DNA of 64,000 nt, from IMG/VR virus record IMGVR_UViG_3300017719_000005; one strand, 5' to 3'. The position numbers were made by a program, and so were the translations under genes. This document shows, in pieces, positions 23,185 to 35,309 of the stretch. Each line of letters opens with the position of its first letter. Position 1 is the stretch's first letter. This DNA comes from an uncultured virus (IMG/VR IMGVR_UViG_3300017719_000005) (lineage: Duplodnaviria; Heunggongvirae; Uroviricota; Caudoviricetes; Kyanoviridae). A model generated the notes under the pieces. It had not been told where the DNA came from. It ran no database searches and saw only the letters and a list, made by a program, of their open reading frames with translations.

Positions 23185-23300
23185 ATTTAGGGTAGGTATG
23201 AGTGCAGGGAAACACTAATATAATATGCCTGTTGCACCCTCAGCAGCAGGTATGAAAGACTGTTATTTAATGACGCTGTTTAGTCTTGGTGAGGCGTCAA
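23185..23300 (-). ncRNA. Structured psbA 5' leader, probably a PhotoRC-II-type motif
   Basis: Hairpins (TGACGC/GCGTCA; ATACCTGCTGC/GCAACAGGCAT) between the promoter and psbA. Family assigned from position and recall only. Confidence 0.55.
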
Positions 23301-23327
23301 GTGTGTCGTTGTGTAACGACCGTCCAT

Positions 23328-29223: not shown

Positions 29224-29580
29224 TTATATATGCTCAATAGGTTGACTGTCAACCCCAAAGTGTTTGATAAACCATTCGGCATCCACTACCACGAGTGCTT
29301 GCTTCCTATTCTTTTTCATGAAGAGGATGGGTTCGTAATTTCCAGAGTTAGCACATGCCTGATCGTAAGCATCATACACATTCAACTTCTCTACATTTTT
29401 ACACTCGATACTAAAAGGAAATTTCTTCCTAGCATCTCGTGCCATGATGAGATCTTCTCCACCAGCACCCATGCTGCGAGACTCAATGTCTTCAGGGTGG
29501 ACATCCCTATGCTCAATGAGCATGTCTCTCACCCACTTCTGGAAGTTTCTACCCTTTGCTTTCGCACTCTGTGGTTTCAC
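29224..29580 (-). CDS. PD-(D/E)xK nuclease/resolvase-like protein
   Basis: SAKAKGR, GEDL, SIECK. Confidence 0.8.
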   Translation of the reverse strand: MKPQSAKAKGRNFQKWVRDMLIEHRDVHPEDIESRSMGAGGEDLIMARDARKKFPFSIECKNVEKLNVYDAYDQACANSGNYEPILFMKKNRKQALVVVDAEWFIKHFGVDSQPIEHI

Positions 29581-29747: not shown

Positions 29748-29952
29748 CTTCTTCAGTCTCCTTCTTGAATCCAAACGGCGAAACTTTATCTTCTTCTAGT
29801 CTCAACTTAAGTGCAACAGCACCCAGAGACTCCATTACTTTGAGGATGTCTTCGGTCTTAGCATCACCGCCTAACTCTTTAGCAACATACCAATACTTTT
29901 CCCAGAAAGTATCTCCTGCTTTCTTGTAATCATCTAACGTTAATAGTTTCAT
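29734..29952 (-). CDS. Hypothetical protein
   Basis: FWEKYWYVAKELG...EDILKVMES. Confidence 0.65.
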   Translation of the reverse strand: MKLLTLDDYKKAGDTFWEKYWYVAKELGGDAKTEDILKVMESLGAVALKLRLEEDKVSPFGFKKETEEDVIE

Positions 29953-29964
29953 ATAAAAGTATAA

Positions 29965-29989
29965 TAAAAAAGAGGGGTTACCCCCTCTT
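29965..29989 (-). terminator. Rho-independent terminator
   Basis: AAGAGGGG-gtaa-CCCCTCTT-TTTT. Confidence 0.8.
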
Positions 29990-29996
29990 ACTTAGG

Positions 29997-30164
29997 TCAC
30001 TTGCTGTAGGTCTTTCCACGGTAGCAGAAAGTCCCGTGAGACTCTTTGCTTTCCACACAACGTGTGTCATACTTTACACCGCGATATGTGGTGTGAGTAA
30101 TCTGTGCGTTATGCAAGGCAGATGCCTTGTGAATTTGCTTGCGAATGAGGTTAAGTGTGTTCAT
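29997..30164 (-). CDS. DUF4278-type small basic protein (55 aa)
   Basis: Manual translation MNTLNLIRKQIHKASALHNAQITHTTYRGVKY...FCYRGKTYSK; two YRG motifs; GGAG RBS. Confidence 0.75.
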   Translation of the reverse strand: MNTLNLIRKQIHKASALHNAQITHTTYRGVKYDTRCVESKESHGTFCYRGKTYSK

Positions 30165-30197
30165 GAGTTCGTCTCCGAAGTTAGGGTTTTTAATCCC

Positions 30198-30423
30198 CGT
30201 TCCTTCAATCGTGTGCGTCCCAATAACACTCAGGGACAGATTCCTTTACGGTCTCTATCAACTCTACCTTAAAAGCATGTGAGAGATCCTCATTTGCTTT
30301 CATTTTAAGCATGATTGTATCAGCTTGTTGGCAGGTGAGTGATGAATACAGAAGTAATTCAAACATGGGATCAACGCTCCGTTGCGCGACTTACTTGCGT
30401 CCCACCCAAGAGTGGGATGAACG
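30198..30423 (-). promoter_or_regulatory. Tandem glutamine-riboswitch-like (glnA/Downstream-peptide-type) element
   Basis: Two modules CGUU(C/G)AUCCCA...UGGGACGCA...GGA(G/A)CG upstream of a DUF4278-type ORF. Confidence 0.65.
30205..30366 (-). CDS. Small ORF (53 aa) nested in a riboswitch-like leader
   Basis: Manual translation MFELLLYSSLTCQQADTIMLKM...VPECYWDAHD. Confidence 0.6.
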   Translation of the reverse strand: MFELLLYSSLTCQQADTIMLKMKANEDLSHAFKVELIETVKESVPECYWDAHD

Positions 30424-30463
30424 TGTTGTCATGATAGCATGACATTACTATTTATGCAACCCC

Positions 30464-30661
30464 CTACTTCTTTCGTTTCTTTTTGCGACGATGGTAGGGA
30501 GTGTTACTAATGGGCTTGGTATTCTTTAAGTCCTTCTTGAGTTTCTTCAAGAAGGATAAGTGGTCCCTGATACCATGTATCGGGGTTTTCGGAATACCAG
30601 TCGATTGTGTCTCGTTTGTATACAGGGACCTCGCTTGTCTCTTCCAATTTCTTCTCGGCAT
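30464..30661 (-). CDS. Small basic hypothetical protein
   Basis: ORF track; competes with an overlapping frame, so uncertain. Confidence 0.35.
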   Translation of the reverse strand: MPRRNWKRQARSLYTNETQSTGIPKTPIHGIRDHLSFLKKLKKDLKNTKPISNTPYHRRKKKRKK

Positions 30662-30711: not shown

Positions 30712-31872
30712 TTATAGCTTAAACCCGCTAAAAGTTTCCGCACTAACATCCTGCTTGATTCCCCCAACGACATAGGATTCAATCTCAGTTTCCTGAGGGG
30801 CATTTTGTTGACCCTTGCTATTTAGCCAGTGCTCTGTCCAAGGCAGAGGATTGTTTTTAGCAGGGATATCGAAGGCGGGTGCTAGTCCGATTGCTTTCAT
30901 ACGACGATTAGCAATCCATTCCACGTATTGAGAAAGCAGACGCTCGTTAAGACCGATCATACTACCATTCTCAAACAAATATTTTGCCCACTCTTTCTCT
31001 TGGGCAACTGCGTCAAGGAACATCTGACGCACTGTCTCTTCCTCTTCCTGAATGATCTGCTGCATCTCAGGATCGTCACCCTTCTTCCACTTGTAGAGGA
31101 TCTTCTGGGTCAATGCGAGGTGCTGTGACTCGTCCCTGGCAATAAGGGAGATAATTTTTGCAGAACCTTCCATGAGTTTAAGTTCACCAAAAGCAAAGCT
31201 GCAAGCAAAAGAAACATAAAACCGAATTCCTTCAAGGATATTGACATTAGCAATCGCCAGATAGAGTTTACGCTTGACATCTCTGATAGTCCACTGTGAA
31301 GTAGGAGAGTCTTTCCAACCTTCCTTCCACATGTTACTGAGTGACCACTCAGTTGCTACCTCAATGAAGTCATTGTATGCTTTGCATACTGCTGTAGCAC
31401 GGTCAAGGATCTTCTCATTATCTAATACTGCATCGAAGACTTCTGATGGGTCTGCGTATACGTTCTTGATGATATGAGTATAGGAGCGAGAGTGAATCTG
31501 CTCCATGAATTCCCATACTCCCATGCATCCTTCCAACTCTGGAAGACTACAGTAAGGTGAGAATGCCATGCCAGGACCACGCCCTTGCACAGAGTCCAGA
31601 AGGATCTGATACTTGAGGTTGCTGGTGTAGATATGTTTTTGTTGCTCATTCAGTGTCTTGTAATCGGCACGGTCCTTCTGTAGAGATACCTCTTCAGGTC
31701 TCCAGAAGTAACCGAGTTGTGTCTGTGTTAGTTTGTCGAAGTCAGGATACTTATATTCATCGTATCGTTGCATCCCCAAGGGAGCTCCGAAAAACATTGG
31801 TTGTTTTTTGGTGTCTACTTTCTTGTCGTTGAAAACAGTCAGTCCCATTTTGGCTCCCTTGGATTCTTGCAT
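30712..31872 (-). CDS. nrdB: Ribonucleotide reductase class Ia beta subunit
   Basis: FWRPEEV, EQIHSRSY, EGIRFYVSF, RDESQH; start may be MGLTVF at 31848. Confidence 0.97.
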   Translation of the reverse strand: MQESKGAKMGLTVFNDKKVDTKKQPMFFGAPLGMQRYDEYKYPDFDKLTQTQLGYFWRPEEVSLQKDRADYKTLNEQQKHIYTSNLKYQILLDSVQGRGPGMAFSPYCSLPELEGCMGVWEFMEQIHSRSYTHIIKNVYADPSEVFDAVLDNEKILDRATAVCKAYNDFIEVATEWSLSNMWKEGWKDSPTSQWTIRDVKRKLYLAIANVNILEGIRFYVSFACSFAFGELKLMEGSAKIISLIARDESQHLALTQKILYKWKKGDDPEMQQIIQEEEETVRQMFLDAVAQEKEWAKYLFENGSMIGLNERLLSQYVEWIANRRMKAIGLAPAFDIPAKNNPLPWTEHWLNSKGQQNAPQETEIESYVVGGIKQDVSAETFSGFKL

Positions 31873-32006
31873 GTACCGTAGTTGTGAATATAATTTAGGA
31901 ATGCATTGATCCTTGGAGCAAAGTCCAGGGAGTCACAGCAGTCAAGATAGGACTCAAATTCTTCTTGTAAGTCCTTGCTGAGTGTGATAGTAATGTCCTT
32001 AGACAT
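31839..32006 (-). CDS. Small hypothetical protein between nrdA and nrdB
   Basis: MSKDITITLSK...; overlaps both neighbours. Confidence 0.5.
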   Translation of the reverse strand: MSKDITITLSKDLQEEFESYLDCCDSLDFAPRINAFLNYIHNYGTCKNPREPKWD

Positions 32007-34320
32007 TGCAGGCATCGCATTCAGACTCATCGCCTGCATCAATCTCCGCTAAGAGATTGTCTAGTTTGGAAGCAGTCTCATCAACCCATCCAATTGAATG
32101 AGCAGGCTCGTCTACATCTTTTTTGGCATCGTATGTATTTTGATAGTAAGAAGTTTTCCAACCATACTTGTAGGTCATTAGTAGGTCTTGTGCCATAACG
32201 GATACAGGCACTTCATTATTTTCAAATTTCTCTGGGTTATAAGACCAGTTGCCTGAGATGGCTTGGTCAAAGAATTTCTGCATGACTGCAACAATCTCAA
32301 CGTATCCTTTGTTGGATTGCATTTCCCATAGGAGAGTATAGTTATTCTTCAGTGTATTGAATTGAAGAACAATCTGCTTAAGAGGTCCCTTCTTGGACTT
32401 TTTAATGGACAAGTAGTCTCTAGGTGGCTCAATTCCATTTGTTGCGTTTGACACAACGGAACTGCTTTCCGATGGCATTTGTGCGGACAGAGTGCTGTGC
32501 CTGAGTCCGTATTCATCGATAGATTGCCTAAGAGAATCCCAATCATAGTTGTATTCTGGTGCTACTAAGTCATCGACATCCTTCTTATATGTATCTAATG
32601 GTAGAAGTCCATCAGAGTACTTGGTGCGGTGGAATGCTTCGCATGGACCACGCTCTTGAGCGAGTCTATTAGATGCTCTCAGCAGGTAGTATTGGAATGC
32701 TTCAGTCAACTCATGGACGAGTCTCAATGCACCTTTGTCATCGTAATGCTCACCGTTCTTAGCAAGGTAGTGTGCTAGTCCGATGTATCCAATACCCAGA
32801 GAGCGACGTGCCAACGTGCTACGCTCAGCAGCAGCGACTGGATACTCCTGGTAGTCAATCAACTCCTCCAGACCCCTCACAGAGAGGTCACAGAGGTCTT
32901 CCATCTCATCTAGGGACTTCAGTTTACCCACGTTGATAGCAGAGAGAATACACAGAGCAATCTCACCACCACGATCATCAATGTGATTGATAGGATCAGT
33001 AGGTAGAGTGATCTCCTGACAGAGGTTACTCATATTCACCTTGTCCTTGAAGGAGGAGTGAGTATTACAGTGGTCGATATTCATGATGTAAATACGACCT
33101 GTCTCTGCTCGCTCCTTTAGTAGATCAAGGAAGAGTTGCTGGGCAGAGATGGTGAGTCTAGGGACCGACTGATCCCCTTCGTAACCAAGATACATAGCGT
33201 CAAACTCATCAGTCCCGTAAGCGTCATACAACCCAGGGACATCATGAGGACTGAAAAGCGCCATCTCTCCGTTTCCGATGAATCTTTCATAAAATAGTTT
33301 ACTAATTTGGATAGAATAGTCAAGTTTCCTTACTCGGTTGTCTTCTGTGCCTTTGTTGTTTTTGAGGACGATGATGTCTTCGATCTCTCTGTGCCAGATG
33401 GGGAAGTGGACAGTTGCGCTTCCACCTCGGACGCCATTTTGAGTACAGCATCTGACAGTGCTCTCAAACTTCTTGAGGAAAGGGATAACACCTGTGTGTT
33501 GAACTTCTCCCCCTCTGATTTTAGCGTTGATGCCACGGATTCTGCCTGCGTTGATGCCAATCCCCGCCCTTTGAGCAACGTAGTAACCAATAGCCATGTC
33601 ACTGCTAAAAATGCTATCGAGGGTGTCATCAGCATCAACAAGAACACAGCTAGCAAATTGTCGTAGAGGGGTCCTGACCCCTGCCATGATGGGGGTTGGG
33701 ATGTTGATCCTGTGCTTTGAGATCGCGTTGTAGTATCGTCTGACATAATCGAGTCTTGTCTCTTGTGGATAGGTTTGGAAGAGAGTTGCTGCAATCATGA
33801 TGTACATCTGCTGGGGTGTCTCATACACCTCCCCAGACGATCGATCCTGCACGAGATATTTATCAACGACCTGCCTTAGACCAGCATATGTAAACAAATA
33901 GTCACGGTCGTGGTCAATGAATGATTCAATCTGATCCCACTCATCATCACTATATGTTGTAAGGATACTTTTATCATAGACACCACGATGAACGCAGTCC
34001 CATACATGCTCCTGAATATGAGGACGCAAGTCTGGGTGTCCATTATATACTTGCTTGCGAAGACCAAACAGAAGCAGACGTGCTGCTACAAACTGATAGT
34101 TTGGTGCATCTAATGTAATCAAATCATTAGCAGAGCGCACAAGAATCTCTTGGATGTCACTGGTTTTGATGCCATCAAATAGTTGCAGGTTAGCATTCAT
34201 TTCGATTGCCGACTCTGACACACCAGCAAGTCCTCTGCAAGCGTGCTCTACCATTTCATGGATTTTACTTAGGTGGATCTCTTCCACCTGTCCGTTGCGT
34301 TTGACAACTGTGTTGCTCAT
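31999..34320 (-). CDS. nrdA: Ribonucleotide reductase class Ia alpha subunit
   Basis: ATP cone VVKRNG, SNLCQEI, C-terminal CDAC. Confidence 0.98.
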   Translation of the reverse strand: MSNTVVKRNGQVEEIHLSKIHEMVEHACRGLAGVSESAIEMNANLQLFDGIKTSDIQEILVRSANDLITLDAPNYQFVAARLLLFGLRKQVYNGHPDLRPHIQEHVWDCVHRGVYDKSILTTYSDDEWDQIESFIDHDRDYLFTYAGLRQVVDKYLVQDRSSGEVYETPQQMYIMIAATLFQTYPQETRLDYVRRYYNAISKHRINIPTPIMAGVRTPLRQFASCVLVDADDTLDSIFSSDMAIGYYVAQRAGIGINAGRIRGINAKIRGGEVQHTGVIPFLKKFESTVRCCTQNGVRGGSATVHFPIWHREIEDIIVLKNNKGTEDNRVRKLDYSIQISKLFYERFIGNGEMALFSPHDVPGLYDAYGTDEFDAMYLGYEGDQSVPRLTISAQQLFLDLLKERAETGRIYIMNIDHCNTHSSFKDKVNMSNLCQEITLPTDPINHIDDRGGEIALCILSAINVGKLKSLDEMEDLCDLSVRGLEELIDYQEYPVAAAERSTLARRSLGIGYIGLAHYLAKNGEHYDDKGALRLVHELTEAFQYYLLRASNRLAQERGPCEAFHRTKYSDGLLPLDTYKKDVDDLVAPEYNYDWDSLRQSIDEYGLRHSTLSAQMPSESSSVVSNATNGIEPPRDYLSIKKSKKGPLKQIVLQFNTLKNNYTLLWEMQSNKGYVEIVAVMQKFFDQAISGNWSYNPEKFENNEVPVSVMAQDLLMTYKYGWKTSYYQNTYDAKKDVDEPAHSIGWVDETASKLDNLLAEIDAGDESECDACNV

Positions 34321-35309
34321 ACCTTTTTCCAATCTGTAAGTTGTACCTTTGCTTTTAATCCTGAAAAGGTGTTGCTCTTTATTATAGCAGCAGGGTCAAG
34401 TCCTGCCAACACCATGTCATTAATATCTTTTTCTTTTACTGACTTCGGCCAGATGACTACTGCTTCGCCGCTTCCAATTGCCGCATCAATCCTAGACACG
34501 ATCTGTCTGTTTCTAGGCTCGTTGTCGAAGACCCAGACCCTATGTGTATAAGGAAGAGTGCGGTGGTCAACATCGCTGCCACACATAGCAACAGATTGCT
34601 TAATGAAAGTACTATCGAAGGGTCCTTCTGTGACATACACTGTCTCCTCTGGGTTTACTTGGTCTTGTCCGAATAGTTTGAGTTGATTCTCAAACATCAC
34701 GGTGATGTATCGTAGCGTAGAAGTTGCTGCCATAGATCTACCCTGAATGCCAAACCAATTACCGTCCTTGTCAATGAGAGGGATAATAATTCTAGGTCTG
34801 TCATTCTGAAGATTGTCAAATGTCTGGCGTTGCGTATTAACCCACCTCTTAAACTTGTCAACATAGAAGAATCTACCCAGTTGATCTTCTGGGATTCTTC
34901 TATCAAGAAGATACTTCTTGGCGGGGTGCGTTGTATTTAGCTCGCTGATCGGAGTGAGATCTGTCACTTTGTTAGCAAACTTTGGCTTTGCACCTTTGTA
35001 TTCAGGAGCAGGTGTGTGCCTACCTTTACCAGTCATCCCCTGCTTATATTTCTCCATGACGAACTCACCATGAAGGTCAGCAGCATTGTCCTTTAGAAAA
35101 TTAGACAGCGATCTACCCATGCCACAGTTGTGACACTTGAAGATGTATTCAGTCTTCTTCAGAAAAAAATACCCCCGTGCCTTATTCTTATGCTTCTGTG
35201 AATCACCACAGTAAGGGCAGCGGAAGTTATATAGTCCTGATTTGACGTGTTTGTATTTCTCTAGCCTGGTGCTGAGAAGTCGGATGTATTTGTCATCGAC
35301 GTAATCCAT
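34317..35309 (-). CDS. gp61: DNA primase gp61
   Basis: CPYCGDS...CHNC zinc finger; EGPFDS; DNEPRN. Confidence 0.96.
   Translation of the reverse strand: MDYVDDKYIRLLSTRLEKYKHVKSGLYNFRCPYCGDSQKHKNKARGYFFLKKTEYIFKCHNCGMGRSLSNFLKDNAADLHGEFVMEKYKQGMTGKGRHTPAPEYKGAKPKFANKVTDLTPISELNTTHPAKKYLLDRRIPEDQLGRFFYVDKFKRWVNTQRQTFDNLQNDRPRIIIPLIDKDGNWFGIQGRSMAATSTLRYITVMFENQLKLFGQDQVNPEETVYVTEGPFDSTFIKQSVAMCGSDVDHRTLPYTHRVWVFDNEPRNRQIVSRIDAAIGSGEAVVIWPKSVKEKDINDMVLAGLDPAAIIKSNTFSGLKAKVQLTDWKKV

Follow-up and report, generated by a model that had tools for sequence, protein, structure and literature searches.

On the minus strand of a 64,000-nucleotide (nt) stretch of DNA from an uncultured virus (IMG/VR IMGVR_UViG_3300017719_000005), referred to here at its full length as the window and derived from a T4-like cyanomyovirus, a leader RNA with two glutamine-riboswitch cores (30423-30197) holds one small gene within itself and precedes a second, DUF4278/IF17-like gene. 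Comparison of this leader with related phage loci gives good support to an architecture of two three-way junctions with pocket bases at both ends of one shared helix, P3. The element represents a known riboswitch class in a new architecture; the architecture is well supported comparatively, and the mechanism is plausible. We consider it probable that the cassette leader (promoter, nested gene, DUF4278-like gene and terminator) is one composite glutamine riboswitch, in which the nested junctions would allow glutamine to switch both genes.

Riboswitch aptamers are regarded as non-coding elements located before the genes under their control, whereas here the stem of the sensor closes around a gene, and five codons together with the stop codon are also pocket or helix bases. 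Because these codons and the stop double as sensor bases, ribosome traffic and ligand sensing would be physically exclusive on one RNA. The leader thus offers a natural case of nested, possibly cooperative, aptamers, and a candidate route by which abundant ocean viruses could read the nitrogen status of their hosts.

Pairing between the two cores

The initial annotation had described a tandem pair of glutamine-aptamer-like modules with a 53-codon open reading frame (ORF) inside the second. The elements that it listed, namely an upstream promoter-like motif, module A, a split module B, the 53-codon frame, an ORF with YRG motifs and a terminator, were all recovered in place on the minus strand. 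Module A (30423-30375) consists of CGUUC, A, a UCCCAC/GUGGGA hairpin, CGCAAGUA, AGUCG and CAACGG, while module B is made of a 5′ part (30376-30366; CGUUG, A and UCCCA) and, 143 nt apart from it, the partner strands UGGGA, CGCACA, CGAUU, GAAG and GAACG (30222-30198). It is the tandem arrangement that had to be given up, since covariation shows crossed partners: module A's 5′ strand pairs with module B's 3′ strand, and A's 3′ strand with B's 5′ strand. The contact that had been proposed between AGUCG and CGAUU is real; it is the shared helix P3, which covaries between the modules.

In the resulting outer junction, P1 pairs CGUUC (30423-30419) with GAACG (30202-30198), P2A is the UCCCAC...GUGGGA hairpin (30400-30417), and P3 pairs AGUCG (30387-30391) with CGAUU (30207-30211). 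The joining strand CGCAAGUA (30392-30399) aligns with a strand of the Rfam Glutamine-I consensus, and 30197-30206 holds GAAG, which is an E-loop strand, the 3′ strand of P1 and the next G. These strands support the assignment of a Glutamine-I-type junction. The inner junction is supported, on the same kind of evidence, as a circularly permuted copy, in which P1 is a hairpin closed by a 3-nt loop (CAACG-GAG-CGUUG, 30384-30372), P2 is the long-range helix P2B formed by UCCCA (30370-30366) and UGGGA (30222-30218), and CGCACA (30212-30217) is the joining strand.

The comparison set consisted of 149 sources, namely 28 annotated phage loci, 120 IMG/VR loci (at least) and the window. The IMG/VR loci were retrieved by a junction pattern with variable positions (N) left open, and flanks were obtained for 80 loci only. 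The layout was parsed in 148 of the 149 sources, the exception being L025, in which the second module alone was found. Every parsed locus presents the same order of first core, 2-4 linker bases, second core, 35-70 nt, an AGGAG-like site and a DUF4278-like gene.

When the P1-type strands are named h1 and h3 (5′ and 3′ strands of the first module) and h4 and h6 (5′ and 3′ strands of the second), they read CGUUC/GAACG/CGUUC/GAACG in 100 of 104 distinct complete elements, and with four such strands either pairing is possible. The distinction comes from loci with changed strands. The window, L043, L098 and L104 have CGUUC/CAACG/CGUUG/GAACG; L080 and L099 show the same change in h3 and h4, with one outer strand unrecovered in each; and in L081 all four strands are changed (CGUUU/CAACG/CGUUG/AAACG). 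In every one of them h1:h6 and h3:h4 are perfect and h1:h3 and h4:h6 are mismatched, and self-closing P1s in the window would carry C-C and G-G mismatches. Among the 137 strict junction-pattern matches listed, the closing pair of inner P1 is G...C in 130 and C...G in 7, with no mixed form. The flipped C:G pair of the window is a compensatory double change that fits the nested fold only, and judged by its strands the window is one of the rare natural compensatory variants that separate a nested from a tandem arrangement. On a maximum-likelihood tree of the adjacent DNA (the nested gene plus 100 nt, 99 rows), the C...G label is carried by 5 rows and requires 4 changes, a number that holds in each of the 200 bootstrap trees; shuffled labels give a mean of 4.9, so that the label is essentially scattered on the tree, although recombination of the junction between lineages could mimic such independent origins.

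P3, which pairs AGUCG with CGACU between the modules, covaries as AGUCA:UGACU in L049, L092 and L073 (and, by eye on its sequence, in L078) and as AGACU:AGUCU in L134; its wobble forms are CGAUU (window, L043, L028 and L102) and CGGCU (L053 and L106). The two hairpin stems covary as well. In P2A, for which the parser had required at least 4 pairs, stem positions 3-5 covary among 66 distinct arm pairs. In P2B, the predicted UCCCA/UGGGA covariation was seen in 66 distinct arm pairs, with positions 1-5 paired in 66, 66, 65, 64 and 52 of them and position 4 occurring as C-G (39), U-A (16), U-G (4), A-U (3) and G-C (2). The stem that closes around the gene is thus under selection to pair, and the comparisons establish the helices of the element at the level of sequence. 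Folding by RNAfold gave the complete nested fold as the minimum in 4 of 6 loci with both hairpins short and outer P1 in 6 of 6. For the 272-nt leader of the window, the free energy was -70.6 kcal/mol with the nested fold enforced, -65.7 kcal/mol with the tandem fold enforced and -77.6 kcal/mol for the unconstrained minimum.

That both modules are glutamine-aptamer cores, as had been suggested from the letters, is supported by conserved pocket bases and by relatives with short hairpins. Module A of the window scored 24.8 bits on the Glutamine-II model (cut-off 33), which is the best Rfam match of the window element, and 15.3 bits on Glutamine-I (RF01739; cut-off 35), a model that is unable to span the 153-nt hairpin. 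Natural relatives with a short second hairpin have no such loop, and 5 of 7 exceed the Glutamine-I cut-off (L137 with 46.4, L034 and L038 with 43.6, L003 with 41.1 and L058 with 40.3 bits; L057 and L041 remain below it with 30.9 and 30.1 bits). In all five, Infernal joined the first module's 5′ half to the second module's 3′ half, leaving 38-46 nt enclosed by P3. Glutamine-II (RF01704) scores of relatives ranged from 24.2 to 33.1 bits, the highest being reached by module A of P-RSM6 only. Covariation supports the three-way P1/P2/P3 organization of the outer junction, the bases of the window form all three helices, and the conserved Glutamine-I strands are present, including the E-loop strands (AAGUA and GAAG) and the G after GAACG (30399-30392 and 30206-30197). 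Loci without a nested ORF retain the same 3′ core, so conservation of the core is independent of coding. By its core strands the window element belongs to the glutamine-riboswitch class, and from this membership we infer that it binds glutamine.

The nested gene and the gene downstream

The nested gene (30366-30205, 53 codons plus UGA) begins with an AUG whose A is the last base of the P2B 5′ arm, and ends within the core. The 3′ arm UGGGA lies within codons 48-50, CGCACA doubles as codons, and the last five codons and the stop (UGA, 30207-30205) are core bases. Of the 148 parsed loci, 139 have an ORF whose start lies in the 5′ arm of the second hairpin, and 9 have none. These ORFs have 49-67 codons, all in frame with the same core-encoded end, so to speak a shared terminus that reads W-D-A-N/H-D-stop in most of the proteins; in some loci a G to A change in the E-loop turns the UGA into UAA.

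The proposal that this frame is a conserved gene lying in the hairpin of the second core was borne out. Mean entropy at codon positions 1/2/3 was 1.07/0.53/1.44 (codons 2-47 of 44 distinct 53-codon copies), and the median ratio of nonsynonymous to synonymous substitution rates (dN/dS) was 0.33 over 452 pairs of copies, which indicates purifying selection. In the last seven codons all three positions are constrained (0.35/0.34/0.27), as is expected of codons that double as sensor bases. The nested protein of the window, which is of the Syn9 gp197 family, matches phrog_504 with an E value of 3.4e-27 over residues 1-53 of 53, a family without known function, and in other loci the same slot is occupied by phrog_13397 or by unassigned proteins. 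By eye, nearly all nested proteins have a hydrophobic N-terminus and two cysteines. An AlphaFold2 model (56 sequences) predicts helices at residues 12-24 and 30-43 with a predicted local distance difference test score of 82.2. The nested protein had no match in Pfam, only families of unknown function in PHROGs and only unnamed clusters in the ESM Atlas, and a Foldseek search against the PDB returned none at E ≤ 0.001 (best E 5.1).

In related phages this loop may hold a different small gene or none, and the first hairpin can carry a gene as well. An ORF of at least 30 codons that ends at most 14 nt from the first core is present in the first hairpin of 43 of the 148 loci; most of these belong to the Syn9 gp196 family (phrog_6471), and a few of the 43 appear by eye to be spurious or truncated. 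The phrog_6471 gene (65-68 amino acids) is seen in L004 (Syn9, 294-530), L019, L020, L021, L027 and about 35 IMG/VR loci, with its AUG in the 5′ arm and its stop in either the 3′ arm or the GCAAGUAA core. Across the loci, short and gene-bearing hairpins are found in all four combinations.

After the sensor come the DUF4278-type gene (30164-29997) and the terminator, an intrinsic-terminator-like hairpin with a U tract (29989-29968), as the initial annotation had indicated. The gene has 55 codons and two YRG motifs, and is of the Syn9 gp198 family (phrog_545). Its protein matches Pfam DUF4278 (PF14105) with an E value of 1.2e-4 and 22.8 bits, below the gathering cut-off of 25.3, and at E ≤ 0.1 the family is matched by the downstream proteins of 19 out of 20 relatives, 3 of which reach the cut-off. 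By these matches it is a related but divergent short form of DUF4278.

The putative switch and alternative readings

Together, the end of P3 and the E-loop make up a strand, CUGAAG (30208-30203 in the window, where it reads UUGAAG), that is complementary to a CUUCAG site. This site overlaps the AGGAG site and, in the large majority of loci, is found 15-17 nt upstream of the AUG of the DUF4278-like gene. In the window the site is CUUCGG (30180-30173), overlapped by a Shine-Dalgarno (SD)-like GGAG (30176-30173). The variable position of this anti-SD helix was G:C in 69, G:U in 36, A:U in 36 and A:C in 0 of 141 loci, and the helix is present in the unconstrained minimum free energy (MFE) fold of the window leader. 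In nearly all loci the nested stop (UGA, or UAA in relatives) is inside the anti-SD strand. Glutamine-I and Glutamine-II riboswitches are reported as ON switches before host DUF4278/IF17-like genes (PMC6212724, PMC6698751). The window likewise has both a leader before such a gene and an alternative pairing at its ribosome site, and by analogy the anti-SD helix fits the ON logic of the host riboswitches.

From these elements we infer the direction of the switch and its reciprocal output. At low glutamine, UUGAAG would pair with CUUCGG beside the downstream SD and hold the DUF4278-like gene down, and the GGAG (30380-30377) that lies 10 nt 5′ of the nested AUG, inside the inner P1 hairpin, would be accessible together with that AUG, above all during transcription. 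At high glutamine, both junctions would lock, which would free the SD of the DUF4278-like gene and bury the GGAG and AUG of the nested gene. A ribosome that reaches the nested stop would have to open P2B, P3, outer P1 and the anti-SD helix, so translation and sensing would be mutually exclusive; translation of the nested gene would reset the sensor and may also couple both genes. In a fuller version, which we put forward only as a tentative proposal, the aptamer would itself be an ORF, two cooperative glutamine sites would share one helix, and the ribosome-resettable toggle would yield the two-cysteine protein at low glutamine and the IF17-like peptide, a candidate inhibitor of host glutamine synthetase, at high glutamine, with the loops serving as exchangeable gene slots across cyanomyoviruses.

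Several observations weigh against the composite switch. The window element is below both Rfam cut-offs. When the whole window is scanned at E ≤ 0.05 it goes unreported, and the sole matches, as at the Rfam gathering thresholds, are a tRNA and a PhotoRC-II RNA farther along. The nested fold lies 7 kcal/mol above the unconstrained MFE, and would need ligand and tertiary contacts. The inner junction has the pocket bases but is without E-loop strands, CGCACA and CG taking the place of CGCAAGUA and GAAG, and may for that reason not bind glutamine. Two exceptions, P-RSM6 (L005) and the first module of L078, form a mini-P3 locally and appear to be genuinely tandem. Because most core bases were fixed in the junction pattern used for retrieval, the IMG/VR loci under-represent variation at positions other than N. 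Were the nested gene translated frequently, its ribosomes would open the anti-SD helix at any glutamine level, and the output of the DUF4278-like gene would be coupled and not reciprocal. Lastly, contigs from RNA libraries (4 runs in 4 studies) speak in favour of the composite switch, as they cover 30024-30424 and include a 360-nt contig without differences (30024-30383) and a 237-nt contig (30178-30414), but they show presence in such libraries only, since strand, ends and a single transcript are not readable from contigs. In two of the runs contigs end near 30414-30424, but a transcript start there was rejected, since contigs of relatives have loose ends at that place and one contig reaches 30560.

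These points bear differently on the other explanations that we considered. It is rather unlikely that only the outer junction senses glutamine and that the inner one is a scaffold or decayed copy holding the nested gene, with one site and no cooperativity. Such a reading would account for the missing E-loop strands, for the 24-32 bits that module B alone reaches on Glutamine-II in ORF-less loci, and for the RNAfold predictions in short-hairpin loci, where part of the inner core is paired with the GCG after P3. However, the inner CGUU, ACGCA and AACGG are as strongly conserved as the outer bases in the parsed loci, including the ORF-less ones, where coding cannot explain it. Moreover, the sole inner change seen, the flipped pair of the window, corresponds to C5:G36 of the Glutamine-II structure, which the part of that report available lists among the few pocket-helix pairs that are not conserved, and not as a ligand contact (PMC6698751).

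Coupling without a toggle would mean that the nested gene is constitutive, that ribosomes terminating on it drive the DUF4278-like gene by opening the anti-SD helix, and that glutamine has only a fine-tuning role. The position of the nested stop in the anti-SD strand agrees with it, as does the GGAG 10 nt before the nested AUG, made of the G following h3 and the linker AG, a GGAG that 116 of 123 distinct gene-bearing modules possess, compared with 4 of 9 gene-free ones; this correlation is weak because the loci are related. We find coupling of this kind improbable, as ORF-less relatives retain the whole sensor and the anti-SD helix, so that the switch would work without it, and the nested AUG sits inside a covarying stem.

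A pair of side-by-side aptamers, each closing its own P1 and joined by AGUCG/CGAUU only as an optional tertiary link, is very improbable. The identical strands of most elements allow it, module A alone gives the best Rfam matches in the window and in several relatives, P-RSM6 has its mini-P3 in each module, and a 2022 review counts 157 doublets as tandem (PMC9481103). Against this stand the seven changed-strand loci, mismatched as tandem and perfect as nested, with no single-change intermediate among the 137 listed loci; the 4 changes of the C...G label on the tree; the covariation of P3 between modules; and the preference of the Rfam model, above its cut-off, for the nested alignment. Reasoned from the order of strands, the P3 contact would also cross both P1s as a pseudoknot. 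As an observation apart, L078 has a three-module leader (76-400) in which a self-contained first aptamer is followed by a nested pair, the first hairpin of which holds a 67-codon gene. Finally, an untranslated frame that is merely a long structured loop would suit its position inside an RNA element and the lack of Pfam matches and of PDB matches at E ≤ 0.001, but it is scarcely credible given the codon-position pattern, the dN/dS, the 49-67-codon ORFs in frame with one core-encoded end and the several distinct protein families at the same place.

Upstream region, distribution and known systems

Upstream of the sensor, a promoter-like region (30459-30431) that aligns with the promoters of relatives has TTGCAT (30459-30454), a spacing of 17 nt and TATCAT (30436-30431) with TGC before it. 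The initial annotation had called CATAAATA (30456-30449, minus strand), which overlaps this region, a late-promoter-like motif. The motif is present, but its class is ambiguous, as ATAAATA occurs in only 26 of 106 distinct related upstream regions. Most of the 80 regions without it (70 were viewed by eye) have a TTGAC-type -35 box at the aligned place, AAATA, and a palindrome with TATAAT in its loop. Folding of the 26 ATAAATA-bearing relatives showed, in those displayed, a hairpin of differing sequence after ATAAATA at the same place. A scan of 29900-30560 for the sigma-70 consensus found no site that meets the criteria. The corresponding palindromic hairpin of the window (30444-30427) has a 7-pair stem and a -10-like hexamer in its loop; its sequence changes among loci, with TATAAT in the loop of sigma-70-type relatives and TATCAT in the window. 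Of 97 distinct upstream regions of relatives, 54 contain an NtcA-type box, GTA-N8-TAC, with its centre 46-54 nt ahead of the first CGUUC, against 0.03 copies for each shuffled region. This enrichment suggests, at the level of sequence motifs, that many such cassettes are also wired to the host nitrogen regulator. In the window the box occurs once, at 30507-30494 (minus strand); this copy does not fit the register, lying 77 nt ahead of the sensor, and could be due to chance.

The cassette lies directly after nrdA (31999-34332) and nrdB (30712-31872), both on the minus strand. Elsewhere in the window, a 118-amino-acid ORF (29224-29580, minus strand) has a sub-threshold match to the PDDEXK_15 phage endonuclease family (24.3 bits, cut-off 27), and the PhotoRC-II RNA (23215-23311, minus strand) scores 49.9 bits, above its cut-off. 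In L005 (P-RSM6), a manA RNA (1093-1278; Rfam, 188 bits) is located downstream of the cassette, before transaldolase.

A blastn search with 29960-30470 matched 413 phage records, all named as Synechococcus phage, Cyanophage or Prochlorococcus phage, and 162 of the 413 had at least 80% query coverage with 60-95% identity. With this spread, the parsing of 148 of 149 sources and the covariation of the long-range stem, the layout is far beyond chance. Scanning one genome per prokaryote species for the junction motif gave 7 stretches only (L149-L155). Five are in metagenome bins (Puia, Verrucomicrobiales, an uncultured bacterium and, on two contigs, a 'Euryarchaeota' bin), and the other two are in a Nonlabens isolate assembly and in a 193,981-base contig of a Synechococcus bin. 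These stretches are probably mis-binned phage DNA and not host copies.

Phage riboswitches have been thought to be rare. McCown 2017 reports two glutamine aptamers in two cyanophage genomes (PMC5473149), compared with the 413 phage records found here, and the split layout explains why standard scans do not pick up the element. In papers on cyanophage genomes, a glutamine riboswitch or glnA RNA is named with no further description (PMC9964418), and the word phage is absent from Klähn 2018 (PMC6212724). Sherlock 2022 describes 157 doublets and 4 triplets as pseudo-cooperative tandems, and the words phage and nested are absent from its available text (PMC9481103). A search of the full-text literature, which does not extend to Ames and Breaker 2011 or to the supplements of Weinberg 2010, found no description of a gene inside a glutamine aptamer or of a nested pair, in line with the initial impression that the layout was undescribed.

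Among the closest known systems is Glutamine-I (glnA RNA, RF01739), for example the leader of Synechocystis gifB/IF17 (PMC6212724). It has the same core strands, namely CGUUC and A, a hairpin, ACGCAAGUA, P3, and GAAG, GAACG and G, in a three-way junction, and like the window leader it precedes a DUF4278/IF17-like gene and has an alternative pairing, of the kind expected in an ON switch, by which the ribosome site is hidden. Unlike in Glutamine-I, P3 of the window is no hairpin and opens into a second, permuted core; one hairpin is drawn out to about 150 nt by the gene that it encloses; codons and a stop are read from core bases; and the element is phage-borne, with the window copy below the Rfam cut-off. 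Tandem glutamine riboswitches (Weinberg 2010, PMC2864571; Sherlock 2022, PMC9481103) likewise place two cores before one gene. The accessible text of these papers calls the doublets tandem or pseudo-cooperative and makes no mention of nesting, a shared P3, phages or an embedded ORF; many of the published doublets are probably this same nested RNA.

Glutamine-II (Downstream-peptide motif, RF01704), known from yfr6-type loci of marine picocyanobacteria, where it precedes short DUF4278 ORFs, has the same pocket bases, a similar small downstream peptide and the host organisms of these phages in common with the window element. It differs in that the window has no pseudoknot hairpin around GGAACGG, and in that the ORF of the window is inside the aptamer and not downstream of it. 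Mycobacterial B12 riboswitches and the Mbox with their upstream ORFs (PMC11260477, PMC12810186) also combine a small ORF and a riboswitch on one leader, with translation in the expression platform. In the portions of those reports available, however, the ORFs lie beside or after the aptamer, whereas that of the window is inside the aptamer stem-loop and shares the bases of the ligand core.

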